Shown here in pieces: positions 1 to 9,878 of a stretch of DNA of 9,878 bases. The translations under genes and the position numbers were made by a program. Positions within the stretch are counted from its first letter, which is position 1. Every line of letters begins with the position of its first letter. The notes under the pieces were generated by a model. The model saw only the letters and a list, made by a program, of their open reading frames with translations, had not been told where the DNA came from and did no database searches. Source of the stretch: a virus (Duplodnaviria > Heunggongvirae > Uroviricota > Caudoviricetes); IMG/VR virus record IMGVR_UViG_2703718826_000003, positions 1 through 9,878 of that record; one strand, written 5' to 3'.

Positions 1-1
1 G

Positions 2-265
2 GAACTGGCCAGACATCTAGAATTTACTGTCAGCACCGGCGTTAAAGTTTACTTCTGCGATCCTCAGAGTCCTTGGCAGCGGGGAACAAATGAGAACACA
101 AATGGGCTAATTCGGCAGTACTTTCCTAAAAAGACATGTCTTGCCCAATATACTCAACATGAACTAGATCTGGTTGCTGCTCAGCTAAACAACAGACCGA
201 GAAAGACACTGAAGTTCAAAACACCGAAAGAGATAATTGAAAGGGGTGTTGCATTGACAGATTGA
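2..265 (+). CDS. IS30-family transposase, C-terminal fragment (5' end outside window)
   Basis: Frame 2 is open from window start to TGA at 263-265; translation ELARHLEFTVSTGVKVYFCDPQSPWQRGTNENTNGLIRQYFPKK...ERGVALTD matches my recollection of the IS30 transposase C-terminus including the catalytic-region NENTNGL motif. Confidence 0.85.
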   Translation, partial: ELARHLEFTVSTGVKVYFCDPQSPWQRGTNENTNGLIRQYFPKKTCLAQYTQHELDLVAAQLNNRPRKTLKFKTPKEIIERGVALTD

Positions 266-272
266 ATCTACA
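247..272. repeat. IS30 right terminal inverted repeat (26 bp)
   Basis: TGTTGCATTGACAGATTGAATCTACA, resembling the IS30 terminal repeat from memory; directly abuts unrelated phage DNA. Confidence 0.75.
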
Positions 273-299
273 GTGTTGTATTGTATAAATAGAGTACAT

Positions 300-340
300 A
301 AAGCCATCAATATTTCTATCGATGGCTTTATCTTTTTATT
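300..340. terminator. Hairpin plus T-tract, putative intrinsic terminator (clearest on + strand, possibly bidirectional)
   Basis: Perfect 9-bp stem AAAGCCATC(300-308)/GATGGCTTT(321-329) with 12-nt loop, followed on the + strand by ATCTTTTTATT; sits between the IS30 end and the stop of the minus-strand tail fibre assembly gene. The U-tract on the minus-strand transcript is weaker. Confidence 0.45.
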
Positions 341-914
341 GCGGGGCGACTGGCCACTCAACATCCGCTGCTACTGCTGTATCAACACGATTCAACAATA
401 CCCGATATGTCTTCCATGCAGTCAGTAACGATGCCTCTTCCTCCGTCGCAATATCCAAATCTACGGCATCCTGAAGTGGCGCAATATGCTCACTGGCCAT
501 CTGCATCAGGCTGTTTTTTGTTTCTTCCGCCTTCCGGATCCGGAACAGTTTTTCTGCTTCTGCATCTTTCACCCAGGCTGTGCCGTTCCACTTCTGAAAC
601 TCCCCTTCCGGGGATAACCAGGTGACATTTTCCGGTAATGGGCCAAGTTCAGAAATAAATAACGCGTCGCCGGAAGCCACGTCATAGACGGTTTTTCCCC
701 GATGGTCTTCAACGAGATTCCACGATGCCTCATCACTGTTGAAAACGGCCACGAAGCCAGCCGGAATATCTGGCGGGGCAATATCGGTACTGTTTGCAGG
801 CAGACCTGTATGAGGTGGAATGTATGCATCACCTTCACCAATAAACTCATTGGTTCCAGCCAGTAGATTATAAATTTTTATGGTCCGTGATTGTTCACTC
901 ATTCTGAATGTCAT
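336..914 (-). CDS. tfa: Tail fibre assembly protein (Tfa / Mu-P1 U-type chaperone)
   Basis: 192-aa ORF; N-terminus [48 protein letters not shown] is the typical enterobacterial tail fibre assembly signature as I recall it. Start ATG overlaps the upstream tail-fibre stop (TAATG, minus strand 916-912), indicating translational coupling. Confidence 0.9.
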
Positions 915-2530
915 TATGCAAGCCTCACAATATAGTTAAATGCGATGTTTTTTACGGTGTTTTCTTCGTTACCCGTAGCGTTAACGGTGATGGTGTGTCC
1001 GTGGGGACCAATAATGACAGAATGGGCATGAGCACCAATGCCGATAGTGTGGTTATGGGCACCGATATATACATTGTGAGCATGCCCTCCTGCGCTCGAC
1101 GTGGTACCAGTACCTAACGCAGCGTTATAACCGGCTGATACACCATTCCCCGCGCCAGTGTGACCAACAGGTATATTGTGTGAATGAGCTCCTGCGCTAT
1201 TTGTGGTTTTTGTGCCGTAATCAAATGAACTGGTCGTTTTAGTACCGTAATCAAACGACGATGTGGTTTTCGTCCCCAAATCCGTACTGGATGCACTGGC
1301 GCTGTGGGTGTGCGATTTAATGCCGTCCTGTTCCTGAGACAATACTGCACGACCACTGGCGGGCTTGCCCTTAATCGTCCAGCTACGCATATCAGGGATC
1401 ACACCTGACGGATAAGCGGCTGCAAGTTTCGGGTATGCAGATTTGTCAAAAGTCTGCCCCTGCATCAGGGCATAACCAGACGGAACGGTATCTGATGGCC
1501 AAGGGATCGGTGCGCCAACCGGATAAAGTTCATGCGGCGAAATATACAGCGAATAAACAGAACCGTCCGTTAATCCTTCCGGCTTATTAGCAGAATATGC
1601 TGGTGAAGTATGAATCGTTACGCTGGCATTACTGGTATAATCCCATTGAATATTTACACCAGTCGCATAATTTCCAATAGCAACGTAAATATCGTAAGTG
1701 TCACCAGAAGTATTGACCCACGCAAAATTTGTAAACCCTGCCGATGTGCGCTGCCATAAAGCTCCAGTAATCCCCTTCGGATTACCGTTACCTGCACGCA
1801 AAACAAGTTCAGATATACCTGCCTGTTGAGGTGACCCCACGTTAAATCCCGCGCCACCAATCAACGTAATTGAAACAACAGAACTTGCCTGCGGCATGGT
1901 TACAGTTGCCAGCTTGAACCATCCTGCACCACCACTAAAAGACATTGTTGTGGAGTTGATTGTGCCTATAGACCGTGGGTTAAGTTCAATATCTTTAGAA
2001 CCATCAAACGAGACGCCATTGATAGCACATGCTGTCTGCAACTTGGTCGCTGTAGCCGCATTACCAGAGGTGTCCTGATTCCCTTTGGCATTGACGCCGG
2101 GAATTGAATCTTTTGACGTATAGACCTGCGCCCATTCAGACCAGTTGGCAGAATCAGTATCCCGCCGCGAACGGATATGTACGGGCGCATGGGCACCGCT
2201 CGTGCCACTCCAGCCAATGAATAACTCACCTTCGCCAGCAGCGGTGGCACCTTTAAGGTGAAGCACATTGCCATAGGGGGAAGGGTAGCCATTGTTGTAT
2301 GCCTCATACAGCTGAATCCCGGATGTTCCCTGTGCATTCGCCTCCAGGGCCGTTACGCGACCGCGAGATACCAGAGTATTGATATTAATGTCAGCCGAAC
2401 CATCGAACCTGACGCCATTAATGTTTCTGGCTGTTTTTAATTTCGTCGCGGTGTCGGCGTTCCCCGCCAGCGCCCCGGTGATCCCACCGTTGAAAGTCTG
2501 GCGTGCACTCCATGTGTTAGCCGTGCTCAA
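914..2530 (-). CDS. Tail fibre protein, variable C-terminal (receptor-binding) cassette, Sv/Sv'-like; no canonical start, frame open upstream to 2608 through the crossover site
   Basis: 538-aa ORF with two tail-fibre repeat units (GNADTATKL...[15 protein letters not shown] and [29 protein letters not shown]), a His-x-His-rich C-terminus, and a downstream coupled chaperone gene. First conventional start is TTG at 2530; in-frame translation continues upstream across the cix-like site with no stop until TAA at 2609-2611, consistent with a cassette fused to a constant 5' part by inversion. Confidence 0.85.
1202..1276 (-). repeat. In-frame 30-bp tandem coding repeat (2.5 copies) in the tail fibre gene
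   Basis: Encodes [25 protein letters not shown]. Units 1247-1276 and 1217-1246 are identical at protein level but differ at roughly 11 of 30 nucleotides, almost all synonymous. Confidence 0.7.
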
Positions 2531-2560
2531 CAGGGGGATCTTTTCACCGCTTGTGCCAAG

Positions 2561-2586
2561 TTCTCTTAAACCAAGGTTTAGGATTG
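2561..2586. other. cix/gix-type crossover site for the adjacent serine invertase
   Basis: TTCTCTTAAACC-AA-GGTTTAGGATTG: 26-bp imperfect dyad (9 of 12 half-site positions symmetric) around a central AA, with the AAACC..GGTTT core shared by hix/gix/cix/pix sites. It overlaps the invertase stop codon (2578-2580) and the tail fibre frame reads through it. Confidence 0.8.
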
Positions 2587-3138
2587 AAATGATGACGCCG
2601 GAAACTTCTTATAAAGCGTGGAAACAGCCACATCATAGATGATTGCAACCTGCTTACGGGGGATGCCCTTCTCGAGCAATCGCCGCATTTGCTGCCATGT
2701 TTCTTCTTGGTATTTAGGCCGACGCCCACCTATACGACCTTCTGCGCGAGCTGCATCAAGTCCAGCGCGTGTACGTTCAACGATAAGCTCACGTTCCATT
2801 TCTGCCAGCGCCCCCATTACGTGAAAGAAAAAGCGCCCCATTGGTGTACTGGTGTCGATGGAGTCAGTGAGACTCCGGAAGTTAATGCCTCTGTCACGCA
2901 GCTCTTCCACCAGCACAACTAAGTGACGCATGCTGCGCCCAAGACGATCTAACTTCCATACGACTAGGGTGTCACCTCTGGAAAGCATACGGAGAACCTT
3001 TTTTAACCCAGGGCGTTCAGCCTTTTTGCCGCTCGCCTTGTCCTCAAAAATTAGCTTACATCCTGCGCTTTCAAGGGCATTTCGTTGTAAAGCAGTGTTT
3101 TGTTCATTTGTTGATACGCGTACATAGCCAATTAGCAT
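2578..3138 (-). CDS. cin: Serine DNA invertase, Cin/Gin/Pin/Hin family (186 aa)
   Basis: N-terminus [22 protein letters not shown] with catalytic Ser in the RVSTNEQ motif, conserved [15 protein letters not shown] and GRIGGRRPK segments, and a C-terminal helix-turn-helix-like [13 protein letters not shown]. Length 186 aa, same as P1 Cin as I recall. Gene ends within the crossover site. Confidence 0.93.
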
Positions 3139-3265
3139 ATTTTCTGCTCACCATAGTTATTCATAGCAAGCTGCGGATTTTAATTAACAGAAACCAGTGT
3201 GTGTGGAAATCACAAAGTGCATACCGTGCCCCAATGATGTTTTATTGAAAAGCGGGGTTACTTTA
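3139..3265. promoter_or_regulatory. Divergent intergenic control region between the invertase gene and the plus-strand operon (promoters not resolved)
   Basis: 127-bp AT-rich spacer between divergent starts. One weak sigma70-like candidate for the invertase on the minus strand: -35 TTAATT (complement of 3182-3187), 16-bp spacer, -10 TATGAA (complement of 3160-3165). No confident plus-strand promoter identified by eye. Confidence 0.25.
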
Positions 3266-3547
3266 ATGTTTGATTTAACCATATTTTTTATAACCATCCT
3301 TGGAGGCGTGCATTCGTTTCTGAATGGGGTTCGTGAAAAACGTTACGAAGCGTCATGCAGGCAATTGATGGCCGAGTGTATTGCTGCCGTACTTGCAGGC
3401 TTTATAGGCATGTATTTCGCGGAATATAAGGGTATGGATGAAAGTCTTCAGAATTGCGTGACTATTATTTGCAGCATCAATAACAGGCTCATTCTTGAAA
3501 AGTTACAAAGGATTATCGATTCGTACCTCAGTAGCAATGCCTCTTAA
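3266..3547 (+). CDS. Small holin-like membrane protein (two predicted transmembrane helices); possibly LydC-like
   Basis: ORF track gives 3197-3547 from a GTG with no ribosome-binding site. ATG at 3266 is preceded by GGGG 8 nt upstream and gives a 93-aa protein with two hydrophobic segments (LTIFFITILGGVHSFL, IAAVLAGFIGMYFAEY). Start and function uncertain. Confidence 0.5.
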   Translation: MFDLTIFFITILGGVHSFLNGVREKRYEASCRQLMAECIAAVLAGFIGMYFAEYKGMDESLQNCVTIICSINNRLILEKLQRIIDSYLSSNAS

Positions 3548-3587
3548 GCAACAAATGACCGGTTGAGAAGTTACTTTGCATACCATT

Positions 3588-3609
3588 ACCTCCTGACAAC
3601 GTAGGAGGG
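3588..3609 (+). promoter_or_regulatory. Hairpin pairing the Shine-Dalgarno sequence of the downstream holin gene with an upstream anti-SD
   Basis: CCTCCT (3589-3594) and AGGAGG (3603-3608) form a 6-bp stem with an 8-nt loop; AGGAGG is the ribosome-binding site 6 nt upstream of the GTG start at 3615. Confidence 0.4.
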
Positions 3610-3614
3610 AACTT

Positions 3615-3944
3615 GTGCTTGACACACAGGAATTAGCTCCAGTTGCTATTGCGCTCCTGCTTTCAGTAATTGGTGGGATAGGCACGTTCCTGATGGATGT
3701 CCGAGACGGTCGCCAGTCTGGCAATTTGTTGGGATTGGTTACGGAGATCTTTGTTGCAGTGACAGCTGGCGCGGTGGCGTACCTATTGGGGCAACACGAG
3801 GGCTGGGAGTTATCAATTACGTACTTAATGGTAACGATAGCCAGCAATAACGGTCATGAGGTGATTTCAGGGATGAAACGAGTGAATATCGATAGCATTC
3901 TGAATGTTCTTACAAGTTTGGTGAAAAAGGGAGGCGGGAAATGA
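3615..3944 (+). CDS. lydA: Holin (LydA-like), 109 aa
   Basis: GTG start with strong AGGAGG ribosome-binding site; hydrophobic segments LAPVAIALLLSVIGGIGTFL and LLGLVTEIFVAVTAGAVAYLL, charged C-terminal tail KKGGGK; size and position match P1 lydA as I recall it. Stop overlaps the next start (ATGA). Confidence 0.7.
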   Translation: MLDTQELAPVAIALLLSVIGGIGTFLMDVRDGRQSGNLLGLVTEIFVAVTAGAVAYLLGQHEGWELSITYLMVTIASNNGHEVISGMKRVNIDSILNVLTSLVKKGGGK

Positions 3945-4384
3945 TTGGCTGGGGTGTATGCGTTCTTGCGTTAGCCTTAGCCGATCGCTATTTGCTAAAA
4001 CGCAAGGACATCACGCATTTAGAACTTGGTGATGTGGAAATTAAACCGGGTTTCATCCGGGTGCCGTTCAAATACCGGTCTAAATTCCCGTTTTTGCGCG
4101 GCGCAACAGTCAGATATTGGATCCGCGATGTTCAGAAGCCGACGACAGTGATTGAAGGCGAACAACGTTGTTTGACGTCGGCTGAACAGGGCGAAAACAG
4201 TGAATGGTTGTACATACCCACTGAATATATGGGTAAAGGAGAGCGACTGTGGCATTTCAACGTCATGGTTACGCATGGCGACTCGTTCATTAACCCGTTG
4301 TATCGGATTTTCCCTGTTACTCAGCAAATCCGCAGAAGTTACGTAATAAATCTCGCACAGGATGTGTCAGATGACGAAAAATAA
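3941..4384 (+). CDS. lydB: LydB-like protein (putative antiholin / lysis regulator), 147 aa, N-terminal membrane anchor
   Basis: ATG overlaps the holin stop (ATGA at 3941-3944) with an AGGGAGG ribosome-binding site inside the 3' end of the holin gene; N-terminal hydrophobic stretch MIGWGVCVLALALA then a soluble domain. Assignment rests on size and order relative to P1. Confidence 0.55.
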   Translation: MIGWGVCVLALALADRYLLKRKDITHLELGDVEIKPGFIRVPFKYRSKFPFLRGATVRYWIRDVQKPTTVIEGEQRCLTSAEQGENSEWLYIPTEYMGKGERLWHFNVMVTHGDSFINPLYRIFPVTQQIRRSYVINLAQDVSDDEK

Positions 4385-4973
4385 GTATGCAACGGTCGAT
4401 TTTGACCAGGTTAATGAAAAGGGGCTGAAATCCCTTATCGCGGCGATCAATAAAACCGGGGTTACGGTAATTGAGGTTGACTCCAGCAACCGCGCAACAA
4501 CGAAAGATGGCGTTAAAGTTAAAACCGCAAAGCTGGTTCTTAACGACGGACAAATCCTTGCCATACAGGTAAACGATACTGGCGATATATCGTCTGTGAA
4601 ACTGAATGGAAAAGCTATTCCTAACGCTCAGTCGCCGGATATCAAGACGCTTGGTACCGTCATGGGACAGGCGGCCCGCAAAAACTCCGCAAAATTCCAG
4701 AAATCACTGATCGCCAAAGCGAAGCGTGTAGCCAATCCGGTAGACAAGAAACCGGCAGTTAAATCCAACTTTCAGCGCCTGCAAGAAGCAAAACAGCGGA
4801 ATGCTCAGGTGGTTGCCGCTTATAAGTCCGCGCAGAATTCGGTGTCTTTCAATCAACAGCAGATCACTGATTTGCGGGCGAAGCTGGATAAGGAGACGGG
4901 CCGACTCAATAACGAAAAGGCACGGAATGGCGAACTCAAACGTCGTCTTAAGCAACTGAAAGCAGGAAATTAA
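4371..4973 (+). CDS. Hdf/DarA-family protein (short paralogue), about 200 aa, C-terminal coiled coil
   Basis: ATG at 4371 has AGGA 8 nt upstream (the ORF-track start at 4362 has none). Contains the KNSAKFQ motif followed by a predicted coiled coil; the same motif and architecture recur in the next protein. Confidence 0.6.
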   Translation: MTKNKYATVDFDQVNEKGLKSLIAAINKTGVTVIEVDSSNRATTKDGVKVKTAKLVLNDGQILAIQVNDTGDISSVKLNGKAIPNAQSPDIKTLGTVMGQAARKNSAKFQKSLIAKAKRVANPVDKKPAVKSNFQRLQEAKQRNAQVVAAYKSAQNSVSFNQQQITDLRAKLDKETGRLNNEKARNGELKRRLKQLKAGN

Positions 4974-4974
4974 C

Positions 4975-6006
4975 ATGGAACAGTTCAATATCAATAAAGG
5001 GGTGACGATCAAGCCTGGGCTTGACGTGCTTCCCCCGCCAGTGACTGATGATGAATATCGCGCATTAATGGCCGGTGAGGACCGCTATCTGATGACGGAA
5101 TCCAACACCCTGGAGGAAATCGAGGCTACGTTCTTCTATGACACGCCGATCCACTGGTGTGCTACGGATTTACTGGAGGCGATTAGTTCTACTCGTTTGC
5201 AGTTACACCGGACCATGCAGGCATTTGTCCGGGCATTGAACCAGAAGCTGAATGGCACCGGAATCTCTGCGGGGAGTGATAAAACGGGGGATGTGGCCCA
5301 GAGCGGCGCGCGCGCGATCGGCGGTGCTGAAATTGGCCGGGCACGGAACGTTAACGGGCTGCCGGTCCTGCCAGCCATTATTCCGCTCAGTGATGGTCAG
5401 ACTATCAGCATTCTGTTTCATAGCCCGACAGCGGAAAACCGGATCACCAATAGCGATACGCTGGTTGCTTTCCAGTTCTTACTGAATAAAAAAGACGTTA
5501 CTCACACCGTTGCTCCGATGAGTGGACGTGATATGACGCTGGCGCAGGTCACCATGAAACTTGCCAACCTTGCAGAGAAAAACTCGGCAAAATTCCAGCG
5601 TGCGCAGAAGAAGAAAAAAGCCCTGGTTGATGAAATAACCCAACTACAGGCTGACAGTGACCAGAAAGAGGATGCCATGAGCGACCTCGCGGATCAGGTG
5701 GCAGCGGTAGAAGGGCAGAAGGTAGATCTGGAGCAGAAAATTAACGCTGTTGCATCGGAAGCGGATTCTCTTTATGAAGAGAATGAGCGTTTGCAGACGG
5801 AGATTGATCAGCTCAATCGCACTGGTGGGCGCGAAACCATTGCTCCTGCGGGGATGACTGGTGGACACTCTCGCGCGATGACGGATCGCCTTGCAAGTAT
5901 CAAAAATCGTATGCATATGAACGGGGAAGTGACGCTCAGTAATGGTGCATCAATGAAGCAATTCATTGAGGACGGTGAAGGGTATATCCAGTTAACTGGG
6001 ATGTGA
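4975..6006 (+). CDS. DarA-like protein (antirestriction / head-morphogenesis family), 343 aa
   Basis: ATG 4975 with AGGA 7 nt upstream, 1 nt after the previous stop. Contains KNSAKFQ followed by a long heptad-like coiled coil (LVDEITQLQADSDQKEDAMSDLADQVAAVEGQKVDLEQKINAV...). Naming by analogy to the P1 darA operon from memory. Confidence 0.6.
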   Translation: MEQFNINKGVTIKPGLDVLPPPVTDDEYRALMAGEDRYLMTESNTLEEIEATFFYDTPIHWCATDLLEAISSTRLQLHRTMQAFVRALNQKLNGTGISAGSDKTGDVAQSGARAIGGAEIGRARNVNGLPVLPAIIPLSDGQTISILFHSPTAENRITNSDTLVAFQFLLNKKDVTHTVAPMSGRDMTLAQVTMKLANLAEKNSAKFQRAQKKKKALVDEITQLQADSDQKEDAMSDLADQVAAVEGQKVDLEQKINAVASEADSLYEENERLQTEIDQLNRTGGRETIAPAGMTGGHSRAMTDRLASIKNRMHMNGEVTLSNGASMKQFIEDGEGYIQLTGM

Positions 6007-7391
6007 AGACGCTGGATAAACAGGTTGATGTAACTCCCGATGAAGATGCTGTTATGCAGAAAATCAGTGGTGGCGTCTCCATCGCCGGGATTAACGACAT
6101 CATTTCCTGTGACGATTTCTACCGTTTCCAGCAGCGCGGCATGATCAAAATCACTGACTCATACGGCGTTCAGACTACAGAGTCAGGCTATAGCATTGAT
6201 TTTGTTGGTACCTATACGGACCCACTGAAGCATGCGGTTTACCCGGATCGCCGTGACGGCGCGCTGAAGTCGTCAATTGCAAAATGGGTGCTTGGTATGA
6301 TGTCGGAAGGGAATAACCGCCAGATCCGTTCGGCAGAAACATTCCTGGTTGAACTGTTTGGCTCCAATTATGGCGATGTAATCGCGTCATACGGAGATAC
6401 GCTATCCCCTGAAGCAATTCAGGAGAAAATAGCGGATGCGATCGCCAGAATGCCGGAAAAAACAAGCCAGGGGGCTACTCGTAACGGGGATTCTGAACTT
6501 GAAGTCACCAATGCCATTTTCGGTACCAATGAGTTCCGGGCGTCAGATTATGAGATCACCACAGCACAGTTTGGCACCATTGGCATTTACAGCAATAAAG
6601 CCGAGATCAAGCAGGCAATGGACGCAGCAAGCGCGCGCATCGCAGCAGAACGGGAAGCCAATCTGAATCATGCAGTCGCCGCACTGACTCAATCGTGGGT
6701 AACAGCAATCAGGGAGGCCGCCACCACAGGGAAAATCACACCTGCAATTGCGGATGTCGTAAACGACGGCTCTAAATTTATGGATGCCTATCAAATGGAT
6801 GCGGTGCAGTTGCCATCAGCCTATGGCCAACTCAGCTATCGCATGACCTACAACCTGGTATCAATGTTTACTGACCTTGCCATCCTTGGGCTGGTGGACC
6901 TTAACGAGGTTACGCCGGAATTACTCAGCATGCGCAAGAATCATGTTGAGATATTGCAGAGAATTAACACGGTTCTTGCCGGGCGCACCGATGAAGAGAA
7001 ACAGGCCGACGCTGATCGGATAAACCTGGCCCTAGGCAACATCACGGAGGAAGAAATTGCCGCCAGAAACGAGAAACAAGAAGAGTTATCATCAATACAG
7101 GGTGATGCCACCAGCATAGCTCAGTCTCTTGGGCTGAATTATCGCGTATCCACCGCCGACCTGAAGATGATGTACGCACCAAAATTCGCCGCTGGCGAGG
7201 TATTTGGGCTTCAGGAAGCCTCCGGCATGAAAGGGGTTCTTTTCCGTGCGAAAGACGCAATCAAGGCGAAATTCGGCGCTCGCTGGTTGCCAGCGAAGGC
7301 GAAGAACAGCGACTTCCCAGGTAACTGGTGGATTATCGAGACAAAACACAACGTGGCGGACGTTCTGGCCGTCATCCAACAATACGCATAA
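6003..7391 (+). CDS. Hypothetical protein of the Dar-like operon, 462 aa (possibly the C-terminal portion or partner of DarA)
   Basis: Long ORF with GTG start overlapping the upstream stop (ATGTGA at 6001-6006); coding-like composition; no motif I can assign. Confidence 0.6.
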   Translation: MKTLDKQVDVTPDEDAVMQKISGGVSIAGINDIISCDDFYRFQQRGMIKITDSYGVQTTESGYSIDFVGTYTDPLKHAVYPDRRDGALKSSIAKWVLGMMSEGNNRQIRSAETFLVELFGSNYGDVIASYGDTLSPEAIQEKIADAIARMPEKTSQGATRNGDSELEVTNAIFGTNEFRASDYEITTAQFGTIGIYSNKAEIKQAMDAASARIAAEREANLNHAVAALTQSWVTAIREAATTGKITPAIADVVNDGSKFMDAYQMDAVQLPSAYGQLSYRMTYNLVSMFTDLAILGLVDLNEVTPELLSMRKNHVEILQRINTVLAGRTDEEKQADADRINLALGNITEEEIAARNEKQEELSSIQGDATSIAQSLGLNYRVSTADLKMMYAPKFAAGEVFGLQEASGMKGVLFRAKDAIKAKFGARWLPAKAKNSDFPGNWWIIETKHNVADVLAVIQQYA

Positions 7392-7396
7392 CAGGA

Positions 7397-7416
7397 GCGC
7401 CCGGTTCGCCGGGCGT
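7397..7416 (+). other. GC-rich hairpin with UUCG tetraloop in the intergenic spacer
   Basis: GCGCCCGG-TTCG-CCGGGCGT, 7-8 bp GC stem closing a UUCG tetraloop, between the stop at 7389-7391 and the ATG at 7425; not followed by a U-tract. Confidence 0.5.
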
Positions 7417-7424
7417 CGCATAAT

Positions 7425-7865
7425 ATGGCCACATTATCTGATACAATAAAACCGAATAAAACATATCTTGAGGCGGTGCTGCGTACGGCGTTGTTAGGAA
7501 AGACAGAAGACGAATACGTTGATTTCTTCCTGTCAGGGCTACGCGGGCGATTACTGAAAAATCCCCGCCTGTACCGCAGCTATGGTCCATACTGGCCGGA
7601 AATTAAAAAATTATTACTGGAGCGCGGTTATGGTAATTTCGGTCGTCTCGTTGACCGTGACGTTCGCAAAATTTACCGTTATGACCGTCCGGCGCTGACG
7701 CTCATAGCCGCGACGCTCTACAGCCAGGAGCGTTTTGATAATGGTCAGATATACTCAGCCTGGCATTTACTGCCAGTGCCTGAAGAGGTTGACGACCAGG
7801 ACTATGAGTTTGAGTCTTACGATTTGGAAGTTGAAGCCTTGGCACAGGCTGGAGAGAAAACTTGA
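7425..7865 (+). CDS. Hypothetical protein, 146 aa, strongly acidic C-terminal tail
   Basis: ATG start after the hairpin; C-terminus PVPEEVDDQDYEFESYDLEVEALAQAGE; stop overlaps the next start (TTGA). Confidence 0.55.
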   Translation: MATLSDTIKPNKTYLEAVLRTALLGKTEDEYVDFFLSGLRGRLLKNPRLYRSYGPYWPEIKKLLLERGYGNFGRLVDRDVRKIYRYDRPALTLIAATLYSQERFDNGQIYSAWHLLPVPEEVDDQDYEFESYDLEVEALAQAGEKT

Positions 7866-8110
7866 AGAAGCGATACTACACAGTAAAGCATGGGACGCTA
7901 CGAGCATTGCAAGAGTTTGCTGATAAGCATAACGTTGAGGTGCGCAGGGAAGGGGGAAGTAAAGCTCTGCGCATGTACCGTCCTGACGGAAAATGGCGGA
8001 CGGTCGTCGATTTCAAAACTAACAGTGTTCCCCAGGGCGTCCGCGACCGGGCATTCGAAGAATGGGAGCAGATCATCATAGATAACGCATTGCTTCTGAA
8101 CGCTGATTAA
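7862..8110 (+). CDS. Hypothetical small basic protein, 82 aa, translationally coupled to the upstream gene
   Basis: TTG start with GGAGAG 7 nt upstream, overlapping the upstream stop (cTTGA); K/R-rich N-terminal half. Confidence 0.45.
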   Translation: MKKRYYTVKHGTLRALQEFADKHNVEVRREGGSKALRMYRPDGKWRTVVDFKTNSVPQGVRDRAFEEWEQIIIDNALLLNAD

Positions 8111-8120
8111 TAATCATTTA

Positions 8121-8141
8121 AAGCCCATATGATATGGGCTT
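8121..8141. repeat. Perfect 10-bp-arm palindrome (AAGCCCATAT g ATATGGGCTT)
   Basis: Lies 11 bp after the 82-aa gene stop and 22 bp before the AT-rich gene; no U-tract on either side, so an operator, RNA-processing or stability hairpin is as likely as a terminator. Confidence 0.45.
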
Positions 8142-8162
8142 AAACAACAGGATCGATATACA

Positions 8163-9203
8163 GTGTTAGTTAAATATATAGGCGAGAGTTATATGGAAAA
8201 ACCTTGGCCGGGCATGCACATTAGAACATCTTGTCTGGAGGATGGTTTCTTTAGAGCAACGCAACCAAAGTATCTTAATGATCCGTCGAGTGAGTCGCGA
8301 CTTCTTCCATTTTTTAATAAATTTTCACCAGCCGATTACGCATGGGCTAGAAATGAATTTAAGAAAATGCAACGAGATCCATCTTATGTCCCATCTATAC
8401 AAGAGTTAGAGTATTATTTAAAACCTTGCGGGAAACGATACGGAGAGGATTTTCCACACTTGTTAATCAATGAAGGTTTTACCTCAATGGATTCATATGA
8501 TGAATCTAAACTCCAAGAAATAGTAACGTACCTTAACGATTATTTAGTAGAAGCCGTAAGCTGTCATCTTGGTGTATTCTCTCTATCAAAAAGTGATTGC
8601 AATCTACACATGTGGACTCATTATGCATCGATAGGAAAGGGGTTTGCTGTAGTTTTCGATGAAACACACGATTTTTTCAAAATATATAGGCCGTGTGATG
8701 TTAGTTATAATCCAGAAGATAGAGCATCTGTAACCTATTATAAAGGCGCTGTGCGATTTAATGGCTATCCTGCGCCATCGAGGAATATAGATATAAAGAA
8801 TAAAGATAATACATTGCATGGGATCTTAAATCGAGATTCAGTTCGCGAGCTTTTTATTAATAGGCTCCTTTATACAAAAGGTGAAGAGTGGCTTCCTGAA
8901 AATGAAAGTAGAATTATTTTTCCTTTAGCTGATTGCGAGAGAAAGATAGGAAGTATTGTCTCTCCATCGATTGATGATTGCCTATTAAATGAGTATCCTG
9001 ATGTTTTTCATGACTATCATGAAATTAACTTAAAGAAAATTCCTTTTTCTGCATTCAAGCAAATTACCTTAGGGTATAACATGACTGAAAAAGATAAAAA
9101 TATAATTTTAGATAAAGTTAGTTCGAATAAAGAATTGTCTCACGTCAACGTATTATATTCAAAACTTGATATATACGGAAAGGTTGTGGTTAAGCCCATG
9201 TAA
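8163..9203 (+). CDS. AT-rich cargo gene, 346-aa protein with DUF2971-like motifs; function unknown
   Basis: GC content visibly lower than flanking phage genes. Motifs LVKYIG...FRATQPKYLNDPSSE and SCHLGVFSLS...NLHMWTHYASIGKGFAVVFDE resemble the DUF2971 family as I recall it (N-terminal LYKY, NDP-E, MW-HYA). Start is GTG 8163 or ATG 8193. Confidence 0.6.
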   Translation: MLVKYIGESYMEKPWPGMHIRTSCLEDGFFRATQPKYLNDPSSESRLLPFFNKFSPADYAWARNEFKKMQRDPSYVPSIQELEYYLKPCGKRYGEDFPHLLINEGFTSMDSYDESKLQEIVTYLNDYLVEAVSCHLGVFSLSKSDCNLHMWTHYASIGKGFAVVFDETHDFFKIYRPCDVSYNPEDRASVTYYKGAVRFNGYPAPSRNIDIKNKDNTLHGILNRDSVRELFINRLLYTKGEEWLPENESRIIFPLADCERKIGSIVSPSIDDCLLNEYPDVFHDYHEINLKKIPFSAFKQITLGYNMTEKDKNIILDKVSSNKELSHVNVLYSKLDIYGKVVVKPM

Positions 9204-9287
9204 TAATACGCTTATGTCTACACTTCATGATAAATACCTTCCTTAACTTAGGAAGGTTAGTTGTAGGTTTACGCAGAAAGTAACAAA

Positions 9288-9320
9288 TAACCTTCGTAGG
9301 TTATAGAATATTATTCTTTC
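9288..9320 (+). terminator. Weak terminator candidate after the AT-rich gene
   Basis: Stem TAACCT / AGGTTA with TCGT loop (9288-9303) followed by the T-rich TAGAATATTATTCTTTCC; a second small hairpin ACCTTCC/GGAAGGT lies at 9236-9257. Confidence 0.3.
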
Positions 9321-9347
9321 CGGTGAGTATTCCTTGAGGAACTCTAG

Positions 9348-9363
9348 GGAAGGTGCGAATAAG
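9348..9363. repeat. IS5 terminal inverted repeat (16 bp)
   Basis: GGAAGGTGCGAATAAG at the junction with the AT-rich flank. Confidence 0.8.
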
Positions 9364-9493
9364 TGGGGAAATTCTTCTCGGCTGACTCAGTCATTTCATT
9401 TCTTCATGTTTGAGCCGATTTTTTCTCCCGTAAATGCCTTGAATCAGCCTATTTAGACCGTTTCTTCGCCATTTAAGGCGTTATCCCCAGTTT

Positions 9494-9878
<385 letters not shown>

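Follow-up and report, generated by a model that had tools for sequence, protein, structure and literature searches.

A cin-proximal tail-fibre cassette of a P1-like plasmid prophage encodes a T4 gp37-type tip with a tandem decapeptide in its predicted stem

A tail-fibre cassette next to cin

We analyzed a stretch of viral DNA of 9,878 nucleotides (IMG/VR record IMGVR_UViG_2703718826_000003, positions 1 to 9,878), referred to throughout as the window, and focused on a tail-fibre region that lies between an insertion element and a DNA invertase gene. The features that define this region are listed by window coordinates, strand (a dot where none applies) and identity.

1..272, +, right end of an IS30-family element (transposase C-terminus at 2-265, terminal inverted repeat at 247-272)
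336..914, -, tfa (U' position), predicted tail-fibre assembly chaperone (Caudo_TAP, E=3.5e-42)
917..2571, -, Sv' cassette, last ~550 codons of an S tail fibre of P1 type, in a reading frame that is open from the cix site
1983..2584,., arm next to cin of the C segment's 602-bp inverted repeat, constant part of both alternative fibres (placed from the repeat arms of L001)
2561..2584,., cix-type crossover site TTCTCTTAAACCAAGGTTTAGGAT, dyad-symmetric and overlapping the cin stop codon; the repeat-arm homology ends there
2578..3138, -, cin, serine DNA invertase (Pfam Resolvase, E=4.8e-51; HTH_7, E=1.9e-18)

The surroundings of the cassette are those of a P1-like element. Phages P1, P7 and JL22 match window 1979-5996 at 97-98%, a stretch that covers cin, lydA/B, hdf and darA, and the gene next to the cassette is annotated as cin in all three. 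The match to P1 itself begins at 1979 and continues rightwards. P1-like plasmid homology begins at 273, and plasmid p15648-1 matches window 273-5996 at 99.1%. We located the inverted-repeat arms in a related locus, L001, at 2848-3449 and 7711-8312 (99% complementary), and converted L001 coordinates to window coordinates by subtracting 5728. Plasmid p15648-1 (99% identical) has both arms. The window has the proximal arm and its cix site; past the IS30 end, and no longer within it, come the distal arm, the other cix site and the constant region of S. The partner cix site, in the S gene of L001, is ATCCAATACCTTGGTTTAAGAGAA.

A preliminary description of this DNA had taken the open reading frame at 914-2530 (minus strand) as a stand-alone gene. 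This view was abandoned, because the frame continues from the cix site and the same sequence occurs as a gene fusion in JL22. The listed open reading frame simply starts past an upstream stop codon, a stop codon closes the frame that leads into the cassette from upstream, and in its present orientation the cassette has neither a start codon nor a promoter of its own. In phage JL22, where the segment has the opposite orientation, the cassette sequence (99.5% identical at the protein level) stands in the expressed orientation, as the C-terminus of a 1006-residue stf gene that is followed by tfa. The full-length S gene of p15648-1 also contains residues of this frame, including a 22-residue stretch. 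Both orientations were thus seen in relatives rather than in the source strain, with the cassette silent in p15648-1, as in the window, and fused in frame, in the expressed orientation, in JL22. We propose that the source is a P1-like (IncY) plasmid prophage and that window 914-2571 (minus strand) is the cin-proximal Sv' cassette of its invertible C segment, at present unexpressed. Inversion by Cin at cix (2561-2584) would attach the cassette to the constant N-terminal part of fibre protein S (~450 residues) and would at the same time bring it and the coupled tfa gene under the S promoter.

This arrangement resembles the P1 C segment (Cin) and the Mu G segment (Gin), in that the cassette adjoins cin, lies in a 602-bp inverted repeat (proximal arm in the window) ending in cix, is followed by its own tfa (U'), and is found in both orientations among relatives. 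The variable part (window 336-1979), however, is not the Sv'/U' of P1 itself but a lambda/T4-type tip with a lambda-type Tfa. Also unlike P1, an acetyltransferase gene accompanies the variable part in relatives, and here the segment is interrupted by IS30.

The IS30 end (transposase model NF033563, E=1.5e-29) cuts the C segment 63 bp past the tfa stop codon, inside the acetyltransferase gene that intact relatives carry between their two tfa genes. The position of this insertion (window 1-272), together with the missing start codon and promoter, could mean that the cassette is a dead remnant, in which IS30 broke the C segment, Sv' and tfa can no longer be inverted, and the sequence motifs are merely inherited. 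We consider this unlikely. Both open reading frames are undamaged and share 99% identity with their counterparts in p15648-1 and JL22, and cin and the proximal cix site are also intact. Moreover, an insertion within the invertible segment does not by itself delete the distal cix site, which is located outside the window.

Much of this is established biology, including the tip, its Tfa/gp38 chaperone, the mosaic spread of such tips among unrelated phages and the invertible fibre segment of P1. Public records already contain the exact cassette, in the isolated phage JL22 (annotated stf/tfa) and in hundreds of E. coli protein entries. Of practical use is the right annotation, in which the open reading frame at 914-2530 is a silent alternative host-range cassette and not a free-standing gene.

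The tip is homologous to the receptor-binding tip of T4 gp37

The last 214 residues of the fibre protein contain the following parts (all on the minus strand; residues are those of the 538-residue translation of 914-2530).

1316..1531, -, collar domain, N-terminal part, residues 334-405, corresponding to T4 gp37 811-881 (Pfam Collar and 2XGF alignment)
968..1315, -, needle domain inserted into the collar, residues 406-521, corresponding to T4 gp37 882-1009 (2XGF alignment)
1304-1312, 1178-1186, 1076-1084, 1049-1057, 1022-1030 and 995-1003, -, six His-x-His (HxH) motifs
1277..1303, -, first ascending unit, SASASSTDL, an xDL type of decapeptide rung
1247..1276, -, decapeptide unit 1, residues 419-428 (DNA same as lambda stf unit 1)
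1217..1246, -, decapeptide unit 2, residues 429-438, codons ACG ACC AGT TCA (counterpart: unit 2 of fibre locus L085)
1178..1216, -, transition unit of 13 residues carrying the second ascending HxH (family-wide G[TS]KxTNxxGxHxH)
1085..1177, -, hypervariable head or tip, residues 452-482 (31 residues), the only unalignable block in the alignment
986..1084, -, descending stem with four GxHxH at exact 9-residue spacing (H483, H492, H501, H510)
917..967, -, C-terminal part of the collar domain, residues 522-538, almost invariant and with the same sequence as the end of T4 gp37

The resemblance to a T4 gp37-type tip, suggested earlier from the letters of the sequence, proved to be real homology. 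Residues 325-538 matched chain residues 18-242 of the crystal structure 2XGF with E=7e-77 (phmmer against PDB sequences), and the last 214 residues are 62% identical to T4 gp37 and 64% identical to lambda Stf. From these alignments we conclude that this part is a true homologue of the crystallized receptor-binding tip of gp37. Pfam Collar (PF07484) was recognized at residues 339-385 (E=1.4e-11), and the final 17 residues align with the C-terminal collar strand of gp37, such that the collar is split by the needle. For T4 we used the domain limits and residue numbering of PMC6957217, and the numbering of motifs was cross-checked against the residues named there. There was nothing meaningful among PDB sequences for the upstream 324 residues (phmmer; best E=1.2, catechol dioxygenases), and NCBIfam had no model for either the fibre or Tfa.

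By homology, the last 214 residues would form a collar domain interrupted by a trimeric six-stranded needle. A six-stranded needle with octahedral HxH-Fe sites has been described for gp37 and related fibres (PMC6116203, PMC7291167, PMC6957217). AlphaFold2 modelling of residues 325-538 as a single chain, with a 37-sequence alignment, gave a mean pLDDT of 53.5, a pTM of 0.20 and almost no secondary structure, a poor result that is expected for one chain of an intertwined trimer.

The order of parts is the same as in the T4 tip (collar, ascending stem, head, descending stem, collar), the C-terminal 15 residues are identical, and a homologous chaperone gene follows directly downstream in both. The differences are in the N-terminal context (P1 S fibre here, distal half-fibre in T4), in the stem and in the head, which has 31 residues here compared to 34 in T4 and another sequence. 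In gp37, receptor-binding mutations map to residues 932-965, the equivalent of the head (PMC6957217), and we presume that the hypervariable head is likewise the region of receptor contact. This short head, at the far end of the needle, would then set receptor specificity. Because its sequence differs from those of T4 and lambda, the receptor should not be presumed to be OmpC, nor can the OmpC/LPS specificity of T4 be transferred to it.

The preliminary description had also pointed to a coupled, chaperone-type gene downstream, and this was borne out. The tfa gene is coupled to the fibre gene by a stop/start overlap (TAATG, window 912-916), and its product matches Caudo_TAP, is 89% identical to lambda Tfa and 28.6% identical to T4 gp38 (E=7e-19), and falls in PHROG 105 (E=3.7e-97), which is also the PHROG of gp38. 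Tfa is thus lambda Tfa-like and a distant homologue of gp38, and would be needed for folding of the trimer.

The similarity to lambda (Ur-lambda) Stf/Tfa extends to DNA, with ~90% identity over window 352-1039 (tfa plus ~120 nt at the 3' end of the fibre gene). Lambda Stf also has two FDY units and the same stop/start overlap. In contrast to the window protein, it has eight HxH motifs, including an additional 14-residue pair, and its head is much larger, with 48 residues between HxH motifs where there are 34 here. Its unit 2 is GTKTTGSFDY, unlike unit 2 of the window, and its gene is not in an invertible segment, whereas the window cassette is.

Six conserved HxH motifs are predicted to bind iron

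HxH motifs occur at residues 407, 449, 483, 492, 501 and 510. At least six had been reported for the last 120 residues; there are exactly six, in the contexts first described, although they span the last 132 residues. Chance clustering was ruled out by shuffling and by invariance in homologues. When the whole 538-residue protein was shuffled 100,000 times, the mean number of HxH was 0.57 and six were reached once; when only the last 138 residues were shuffled, the mean was 1.1 and six were reached in 18 of 100,000 cases. All 12 histidines of the six motifs are invariant across the 37-sequence alignment, and among the layouts of the family the one with six HxH is the most frequent.

Six of the seven iron-binding motifs of T4 gp37 align with those found here (H883/885, H929/931, H966/968, H980/982, H989/991 and H998/1000). 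The window protein is without the distal 14-residue HxH pair of T4 (T4 918-931 and 969-982). At each site, the buried HxH motifs of three chains would coordinate one Fe(II), giving six predicted metal sites; T4 has seven, and eight would be expected for lambda from its sequence. Iron binding, like the rung geometry described below, is predicted here from homology and sequence periodicity.

The motifs could instead bind another metal (zinc or nickel), or act only as packing residues. T4 gp12 was crystallized with zinc at its HxH site, after refolding in zinc (PMC6116203). However, the homologous sites of gp37, with 62% identity, contain crystallographic iron, as do HxH sites in P2 gpV, phi92 and pyocin fibres (PMC6116203, PMC6957217). 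With 12 of 12 motif histidines invariant in 37 homologues, we regard another metal or a mere packing role as very improbable.

Ascending and descending stem units are equal in number

The decapeptide occurs exactly twice in tandem (residues 419-428 and 429-438), as had been noted. What had been called a partial third copy is instead a distinct transition unit, GTKxTNxxGxHxH, which is conserved throughout the family, including T4 (GTKGTNSTGGHTH). Copy number of the decapeptide in the family ranges from 1 to 4, and xDL and FDY units interchange among homologues. The units also vary non-synonymously among homologues, within the constrained pattern G-[TS]-K-x-x-x-x-F-D-Y.

The two sides of the stem were compared in 171 distinct needles. 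In 171 of 171 there were as many ascending 10-residue units as descending 9-residue GxHxH spacings, counting as conforming five exceptions that are degenerate cases keeping the spacing, and bearing in mind that the 171 are related sequences. Expressed as the first HxH gap and the number of trailing 9-residue gaps, the needles fell into the classes (22,1), (32,2), (42,3) and (52,4), with 1, 62, 98 and 5 members, respectively. An extra 14-residue HxH unit was present on both strands in 42 needles and on neither in 125, and never on one strand only. Relative to T4 gp37, the window protein has one more proximal rung, consisting of a second decapeptide on the ascending side and a third 9-residue spacing on the descending side.

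Because ascending and descending unit counts are always equal, the best reading of the decapeptide is as a single rung of the needle stem. The tandem decapeptides would be two of three ascending 10-residue rungs in the proximal stem, and every ascending rung would be paired with one descending unit, GxHxHxxxx. We are nearly evenly divided, leaning slightly to doubt, on whether the stem follows a strict length-matching rule (from 1 to 4 units, with the 14-residue unit on both strands or neither), a rule that has perhaps never been stated explicitly before. If the rule is true, growth or shrinkage of the needle needs two coordinated changes ~70 codons apart, and the stem is a spacer that can be adjusted rung by rung and could be engineered. 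The rung-count rule would then be a small, testable design principle for fibre-tip engineering.

As a separate observation, equality of the two sides held although recombination visibly shuffles both of them.

The two decapeptide units have separate DNA affinities

Units 1 and 2 are identical as peptides. Their 30-nt DNA sequences had been described as differing at about a third of positions, with nearly all differences synonymous; they differ at 8 of 30 positions (27%), and all eight differences are synonymous. These include a TCG/AGT pair of serine codons, and all six four-fold-degenerate codons differ. The four-fold synonymous sites of the two units are saturated. None of 200,000 random sets of eight substitutions kept the peptide.

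Each unit has its own relatives. The DNA of unit 1 is identical in lambda stf and in the E. coli/Shigella prophage fibres L027-L030 and L053. Unit 2 is matched in L085 by GTKTSSSFNH, encoded by ACG TCC AGT TCA, which shares the AGT-TCA codons with the window; the counterparts of unit 2 in other fibres show non-synonymous variation. Unit 1 lies in a block common to lambda-like fibres and unit 2 in a block that travels with the tip, and we suggest that the two are old paralogous units held near consensus by structural constraint. An old duplication under strong purifying selection, one of the two explanations offered at the outset, fits these affinities and the distribution of units in the family; the other, active selection for DNA divergence, is not needed to explain the data.

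In its most specific form, selection for divergence would mean that the tandem duplication is recent and that its codons were pushed apart because slippage or recombination between 30-bp repeats of identical sequence was selected against. The purely synonymous differences (8 of 8) and the change in all six four-fold-degenerate codons are in line with this, as is a second lineage, L003, in which GTKTTSAFDY is present twice with only synonymous DNA differences. Against it, the DNA of unit 1 is that of lambda unit 1, while other fibres have a separate counterpart of unit 2, and two- and three-unit layouts with non-identical peptides occur in Escherichia, Salmonella, Citrobacter, Buttiauxella and other genera. 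The flanks are 90-97% identical to relatives yet the units differ by 27%, which is a misfit with a recent event. We know of no mechanism by which codons would diverge in this way so fast. The unit-specific DNA affinities and the family-wide distribution led us to reject this explanation, which we find scarcely credible.

A different origin of the pair has to be taken more seriously. Homologous recombination could have united the two units, with unit 2 arriving with the tip cassette (window ~1051-1238) of another fibre lineage and unit 1 coming from a conserved collar/stem block, in which case the DNA difference would reflect two parental lineages and not divergence in place. Window 1527-1238 is 94-97% identical to single-FDY E. 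coli/Shigella prophage fibres (L027-L030, L053, L055 and L056), and this match ends at 1238, 9 nt inside unit 2. Lambda stf-tfa matches window 1051-350 at ~90% identity, and 1238-1051 has no close match in those loci. Unit 1 of other lineages has an 'ACA ACC AGT TCG' version with five synonymous differences from window unit 2, and identical or near-identical tips are found on different stems (P0019, P0052 and P0060). However, 30 nt are too short for assigning parentage, and the ends of blastn matches are approximate. Both units, in the same codons, are already present in L083, a P2/Mu-like prophage fibre, and the junction is therefore not recent. In addition, an exchange out of register would violate the rung-number rule unless an extra descending unit came from the donor as well. 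Recombination is a reasonable possibility for the pair, to which we give somewhat less than even weight. It concerns only the origin of the window's unit pair and is compatible with the main explanation.

That main explanation, a silent Sv' cassette that carries a lambda Stf/T4 gp37-type tip and in which the decapeptides are old rungs, is in our judgement very probably correct as a whole. Homology, layout, silent orientation, covariation of unit counts and the separate DNA affinities of both units are direct observations.

Among 30 distinct pairs of neighbouring units, two were identical as peptides, compared to 0.22 expected under a naive independence model, and constraint plus chance may therefore not explain everything. 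If the rung rule is true, this mild excess of identical neighbours could reflect co-constraint between adjacent rungs.

A lambda/T4-type tip in a silent fibre cassette of a P1-like prophage

To judge from its sequence matches, the source of the window is a P1-like plasmid prophage. P1, P7 and JL22 were 97-98% identical to window 1979-5996, across cin, lydA/lydB, hdf and darA, and the IncY plasmid p15648-1 (E. coli NCCP15648) was 99.1% identical to window 273-5996. P1 homology ended at window 1979, and P1's own Sv'/U' are different; their place is therefore taken, at window 336-1979, by a module of the lambda/T4 type. This end of the window contained:

Left 272 bases: end of an IS30-family element (NCBIfam NF033563, E = 1.5e-29)
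336-914, minus strand: tail-fibre assembly gene of the Tfa type (Pfam Caudo_TAP, E = 3.5e-42)
914-2530, minus strand: fibre ORF (Pfam phage tail Collar domain at residues 339-385, E = 1.4e-11)
2578-3138, minus strand: serine invertase (Resolvase and HTH_7)

The fibre ORF is not a free-standing gene; it is a cassette for the C-terminal ~550 residues only, and is silent in the present orientation. Plasmid p15648-1 has a 602-bp inverted repeat with arms that are 99% complementary, one within a full-length S fibre gene and the other, equivalent to window 1983-2584, adjoining cin. Homology between the arms stopped at a dyad-symmetric site (TTCTCTTAAACCAAGGTTTAGGAT, window 2561-2584) that overlaps the stop codon of cin. 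A stop closes the fibre reading frame upstream of this site, and the TTG start listed for 914-2530 is therefore an artefact of ORF calling. The isolated Punavirus JL22 has the same tip (99.5% at the protein level) in the opposite orientation, fused within an stf gene of 1006 residues that stands behind gene R and ahead of tfa, with P1-type S and U genes adjoining cin. The occurrence of both orientations among close relatives shows that Cin switches between two host-range tips, of which this is one; the copy in the window, interrupted by IS30, may still be able to invert.

The tip is homologous to that of T4 gp37

The resemblance to T4 gp37 noted in the preliminary description reflects true homology. 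In a phmmer search of all PDB sequences, the crystallised T4 gp37 tip (2XGF) matched query residues 325-538 over chain residues 18-242 of 242 (E = 7e-77), and BLASTP gave the tip 62% identity with T4 gp37 and 64% with lambda Stf. In T4, the needle D11 (residues 882-1009), which has seven iron atoms along its length, is inserted into the collar D10 (residues 811-881 and 1010-1026) (PMC6957217). When lambda Stf 578-774 is modelled on 2XGF, it forms a collar with an antiparallel needle of six strands, and in function the lambda and T4 parts can replace each other (PMC7291167). T4 obtained g38 and the C-terminus of g37 from a phage related to lambda (PMC3157838). The corresponding parts here are:

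Residues 334-405 and 522-538: collar domain, equivalent of T4 D10
Residues 406-521: needle, equivalent of T4 D11
Residues 452-482: head, the hypervariable needle end

In an alignment of 37 sequences, the collar and stem were highly conserved and the head was the only unalignable block; its 31-letter sequence is unlike the heads of T4 and lambda.

At least six His-x-His (HxH) motifs had been described in the C-terminal 120 residues. We found six, in the quoted contexts, at residues 407, 449, 483, 492, 501 and 510; they are indeed clustered, over the last 132 residues rather than 120. Shuffles of the whole protein gave a mean of 0.57 HxH and reached six in 1 of 100,000 cases, and shuffles of the His-rich last 138 residues alone gave a mean of 1.1 and reached six in 18 of 100,000. 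All 12 motif histidines were invariant in the 37-sequence alignment. The motifs align to T4 H883/885, H929/931, H966/968, H980/982, H989/991 and H998/1000, with numbering taken from the alignment and cross-checked with residues G921, H929, I933, N937, G938, K945, I951, Y953, G964 and F970 in PMC6957217. HxH motifs form octahedral His6-Fe sites in gp37, P2 gpV, phi92 and pyocin fibres (PMC6116203).

The downstream gene, predicted to be a coupled chaperone, starts within the fibre stop codon (TAATG) and encodes a Tfa homologue 89% identical to lambda Tfa. Its product was 28.6% identical to T4 gp38 (BLASTP, E = 7e-19) and falls in PHROG 105, the family given to gp38 in a T4 record. By analogy with the homologous structure and the literature, the fibre tip would form a trimer with six buried Fe(II) sites, its folding would depend on Tfa, and the head would contact the receptor. 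The earlier observation and its main interpretation were both correct. The tip is a textbook module that public records already contain in annotated form, with the architecture that is modal for the family.

Stem units on the two strands of the needle are matched in number

We measured HxH spacing in 171 distinct needles from 265 proteins, including 145 added representatives of a 50%-identity library. The gap between the first and second HxH was 12+10n residues, where n is the number of xDL/FDY units, and the descending strand ended in n HxH spacings of 9 residues.

HxH spacing in needle stems (first gap in residues; n; trailing 9-residue gaps; needles)
22; 1; 1; 1
32; 2; 2; 62
42; 3; 3; 98
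52; 4; 4; 5

Five degenerate exceptions kept the spacing: one had lost an HxH, leaving an 18-residue gap, two had a one-residue deletion, and two had lost the second ascending HxH. Next to the head, a further HxH unit of 14 residues was present on both strands in 42 needles, on neither in 125, and never on one strand only; one more needle had a 12/12 pair. The window needle has n=3, lacks this distal pair and so has six HxH, the number seen most often (91 of 171 needles); T4 has n=2 with the pair (seven HxH) and lambda n=3 with the pair (eight HxH).

Recombination joins ascending and descending parts of different origin and the counts match perfectly, which argues for a structural constraint. 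Each ascending decapeptide would pair with one descending GxHxHxxxx unit to form one rung of the six-stranded needle; from sequence periodicity, the second decapeptide here would be matched by the third 9-residue descending spacing. This rung-matching rule is the only modestly new point of the analysis.

The decapeptide units are old paralogues

The exact tandem decapeptide repeat was found as described, at window 1247-1276 (unit 1) and 1217-1246 (unit 2), followed by a further 10-residue stretch. This stretch had been read as a partial third copy; it is instead a separate conserved transition unit, G[TS]KxTNxxGxHxH, also present in T4. The two units differ at 8 of 30 nt, all synonymous and including a TCG/AGT serine pair. 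Four-fold-degenerate codons differed in 6 of 6 cases and two-fold codons in 0 of 4, and the peptide was never kept in 200,000 trials with eight random substitutions.

The decapeptide is a structural unit found family-wide, and no peculiarity of this gene. In a census of the best 120 homologues, 17 had two exact copies, and each of these shared 90% or more identity with the query over the tip; 88 had one copy and 15 had none. The second unit in most other homologues was a variant such as GTKTTSLFDY, GTKTVSTFNH, GTKTTSTFDY, GTKTASTFDY or GTKTTGSFDY. In the stems of more distant genomes, one to four units followed the pattern G-[TS]-K-x-x-x-x-[FT]-D-[YL], the FDY and TDL types replacing one another.

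Selection to keep the peptide while the DNA diverges, or an old duplication under strong purifying selection, had been proposed; the data fit the latter, as old paralogues under constraint. Unit 1 has the same DNA sequence as unit 1 in lambda stf and in several E. coli/Shigella prophage fibres, and the distinctive codons of unit 2 (ACG ACC AGT TCA) are shared with the second unit of a related fibre, with peptide GTKTSSSFNH. By blastn, window 1527-1238 matched fibres that have just one FDY unit at 94-97% identity, the match stopping 9 nt inside unit 2, and window 1051-350 matched lambda stf-tfa at about 90%. Unit 2, the transition unit, the head and the first descending motif all lie between 1238 and 1051, in a part common only to fibres with the same tip, such as a P2/Mu-like prophage fibre. 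This mosaic and the unit-specific affinities indicate that the units are old paralogues, each with a history of its own. That their peptides are identical in this lineage reflects constraint toward the consensus; age together with structural constraint explains why the repeat has diverged synonymously. Peptide-identical pairs made up 2 of 30 distinct pairs, compared to 0.22 expected under a naive independence model, a mild excess that is not fully accounted for. The other of the two pairs, an instance of the same phenomenon, came from an unrelated lineage, an uncultured Enterobacteriaceae MAG (L003 3250-3309), where two neighbouring copies of GTKTTSAFDY differ at 7 of 30 nt, all synonymous.

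Between the constant inverted-repeat part and the collar lies a stretch of ~140 residues (window 1556-1970, residues 187-325) with no match in Pfam or among PDB sequences. Over window 1238-1970, which also takes in the collar and unit 1, DNA identity to the fibre of a prophage in the Shigella flexneri chromosome (L030) was 91%. The stretch forms a mosaic block of its own and may be a second binding domain.

Neighbouring genes and other observations

A gene for a 190-residue hexapeptide-type acetyltransferase, annotated serine O-acetyltransferase or sacF, adjoins the tip cassette and is convergent to tfa. The loci concerned are window 1-292, 5448-6020 of the p15648-1 locus (L001), L083 4687-5259, L088 6267-6743 and L085 4533-5120. 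In the window, the IS30 end lies 20 nt ahead of the stop of this gene, so only window 273-292 of the gene is visible. The gene is present in p15648-1, in JL22 (100% over 158 residues) and, with 91.6% identity, in a P2/Mu-like prophage of E. coli; a version with 60% identity adjoins a related tip in a further contig. Given this recurrent association, the tip, tfa and acetyltransferase seem to move together as one module; the acetyltransferase is possibly a receptor-modifying conversion gene. Between the convergent ends of tfa and the acetyltransferase gene, an inverted repeat (AAAGCCATCAATATTTCTATCGATGGCTTT) followed by T-runs (window 296-335) looks like a bidirectional terminator.

At the other end, P1 homology stopped at window 5996. 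Within window 4975-7391, the DarA-like ORF has only 343 residues, with a DarA_N domain and a coiled coil. A second ORF, of 462 residues (6003-7391), follows and overlaps it, and neither Pfam nor NCBIfam gave a match to this one; the region for defence against restriction (dar) therefore differs from that of P1. Window 8163-9203 encodes a 346-residue DUF2971 protein, behind which lies a C-terminal fragment of a DDE transposase (PF01609; 9494-9676, minus strand). This forms a second IS-associated junction, at the window's right end. At 100% identity, window 3480-9168 matched two other plasmids of E. coli.

Identical lambda stf was found on low-coverage contigs in assemblies of unrelated organisms, including Chromatium, Leeuwenhoekiella, Paenibacillus, Kitasatospora and Bradyrhizobium (loci L005-L016, L020 and L045); these are almost certainly contamination with lambda control DNA, not real hosts.
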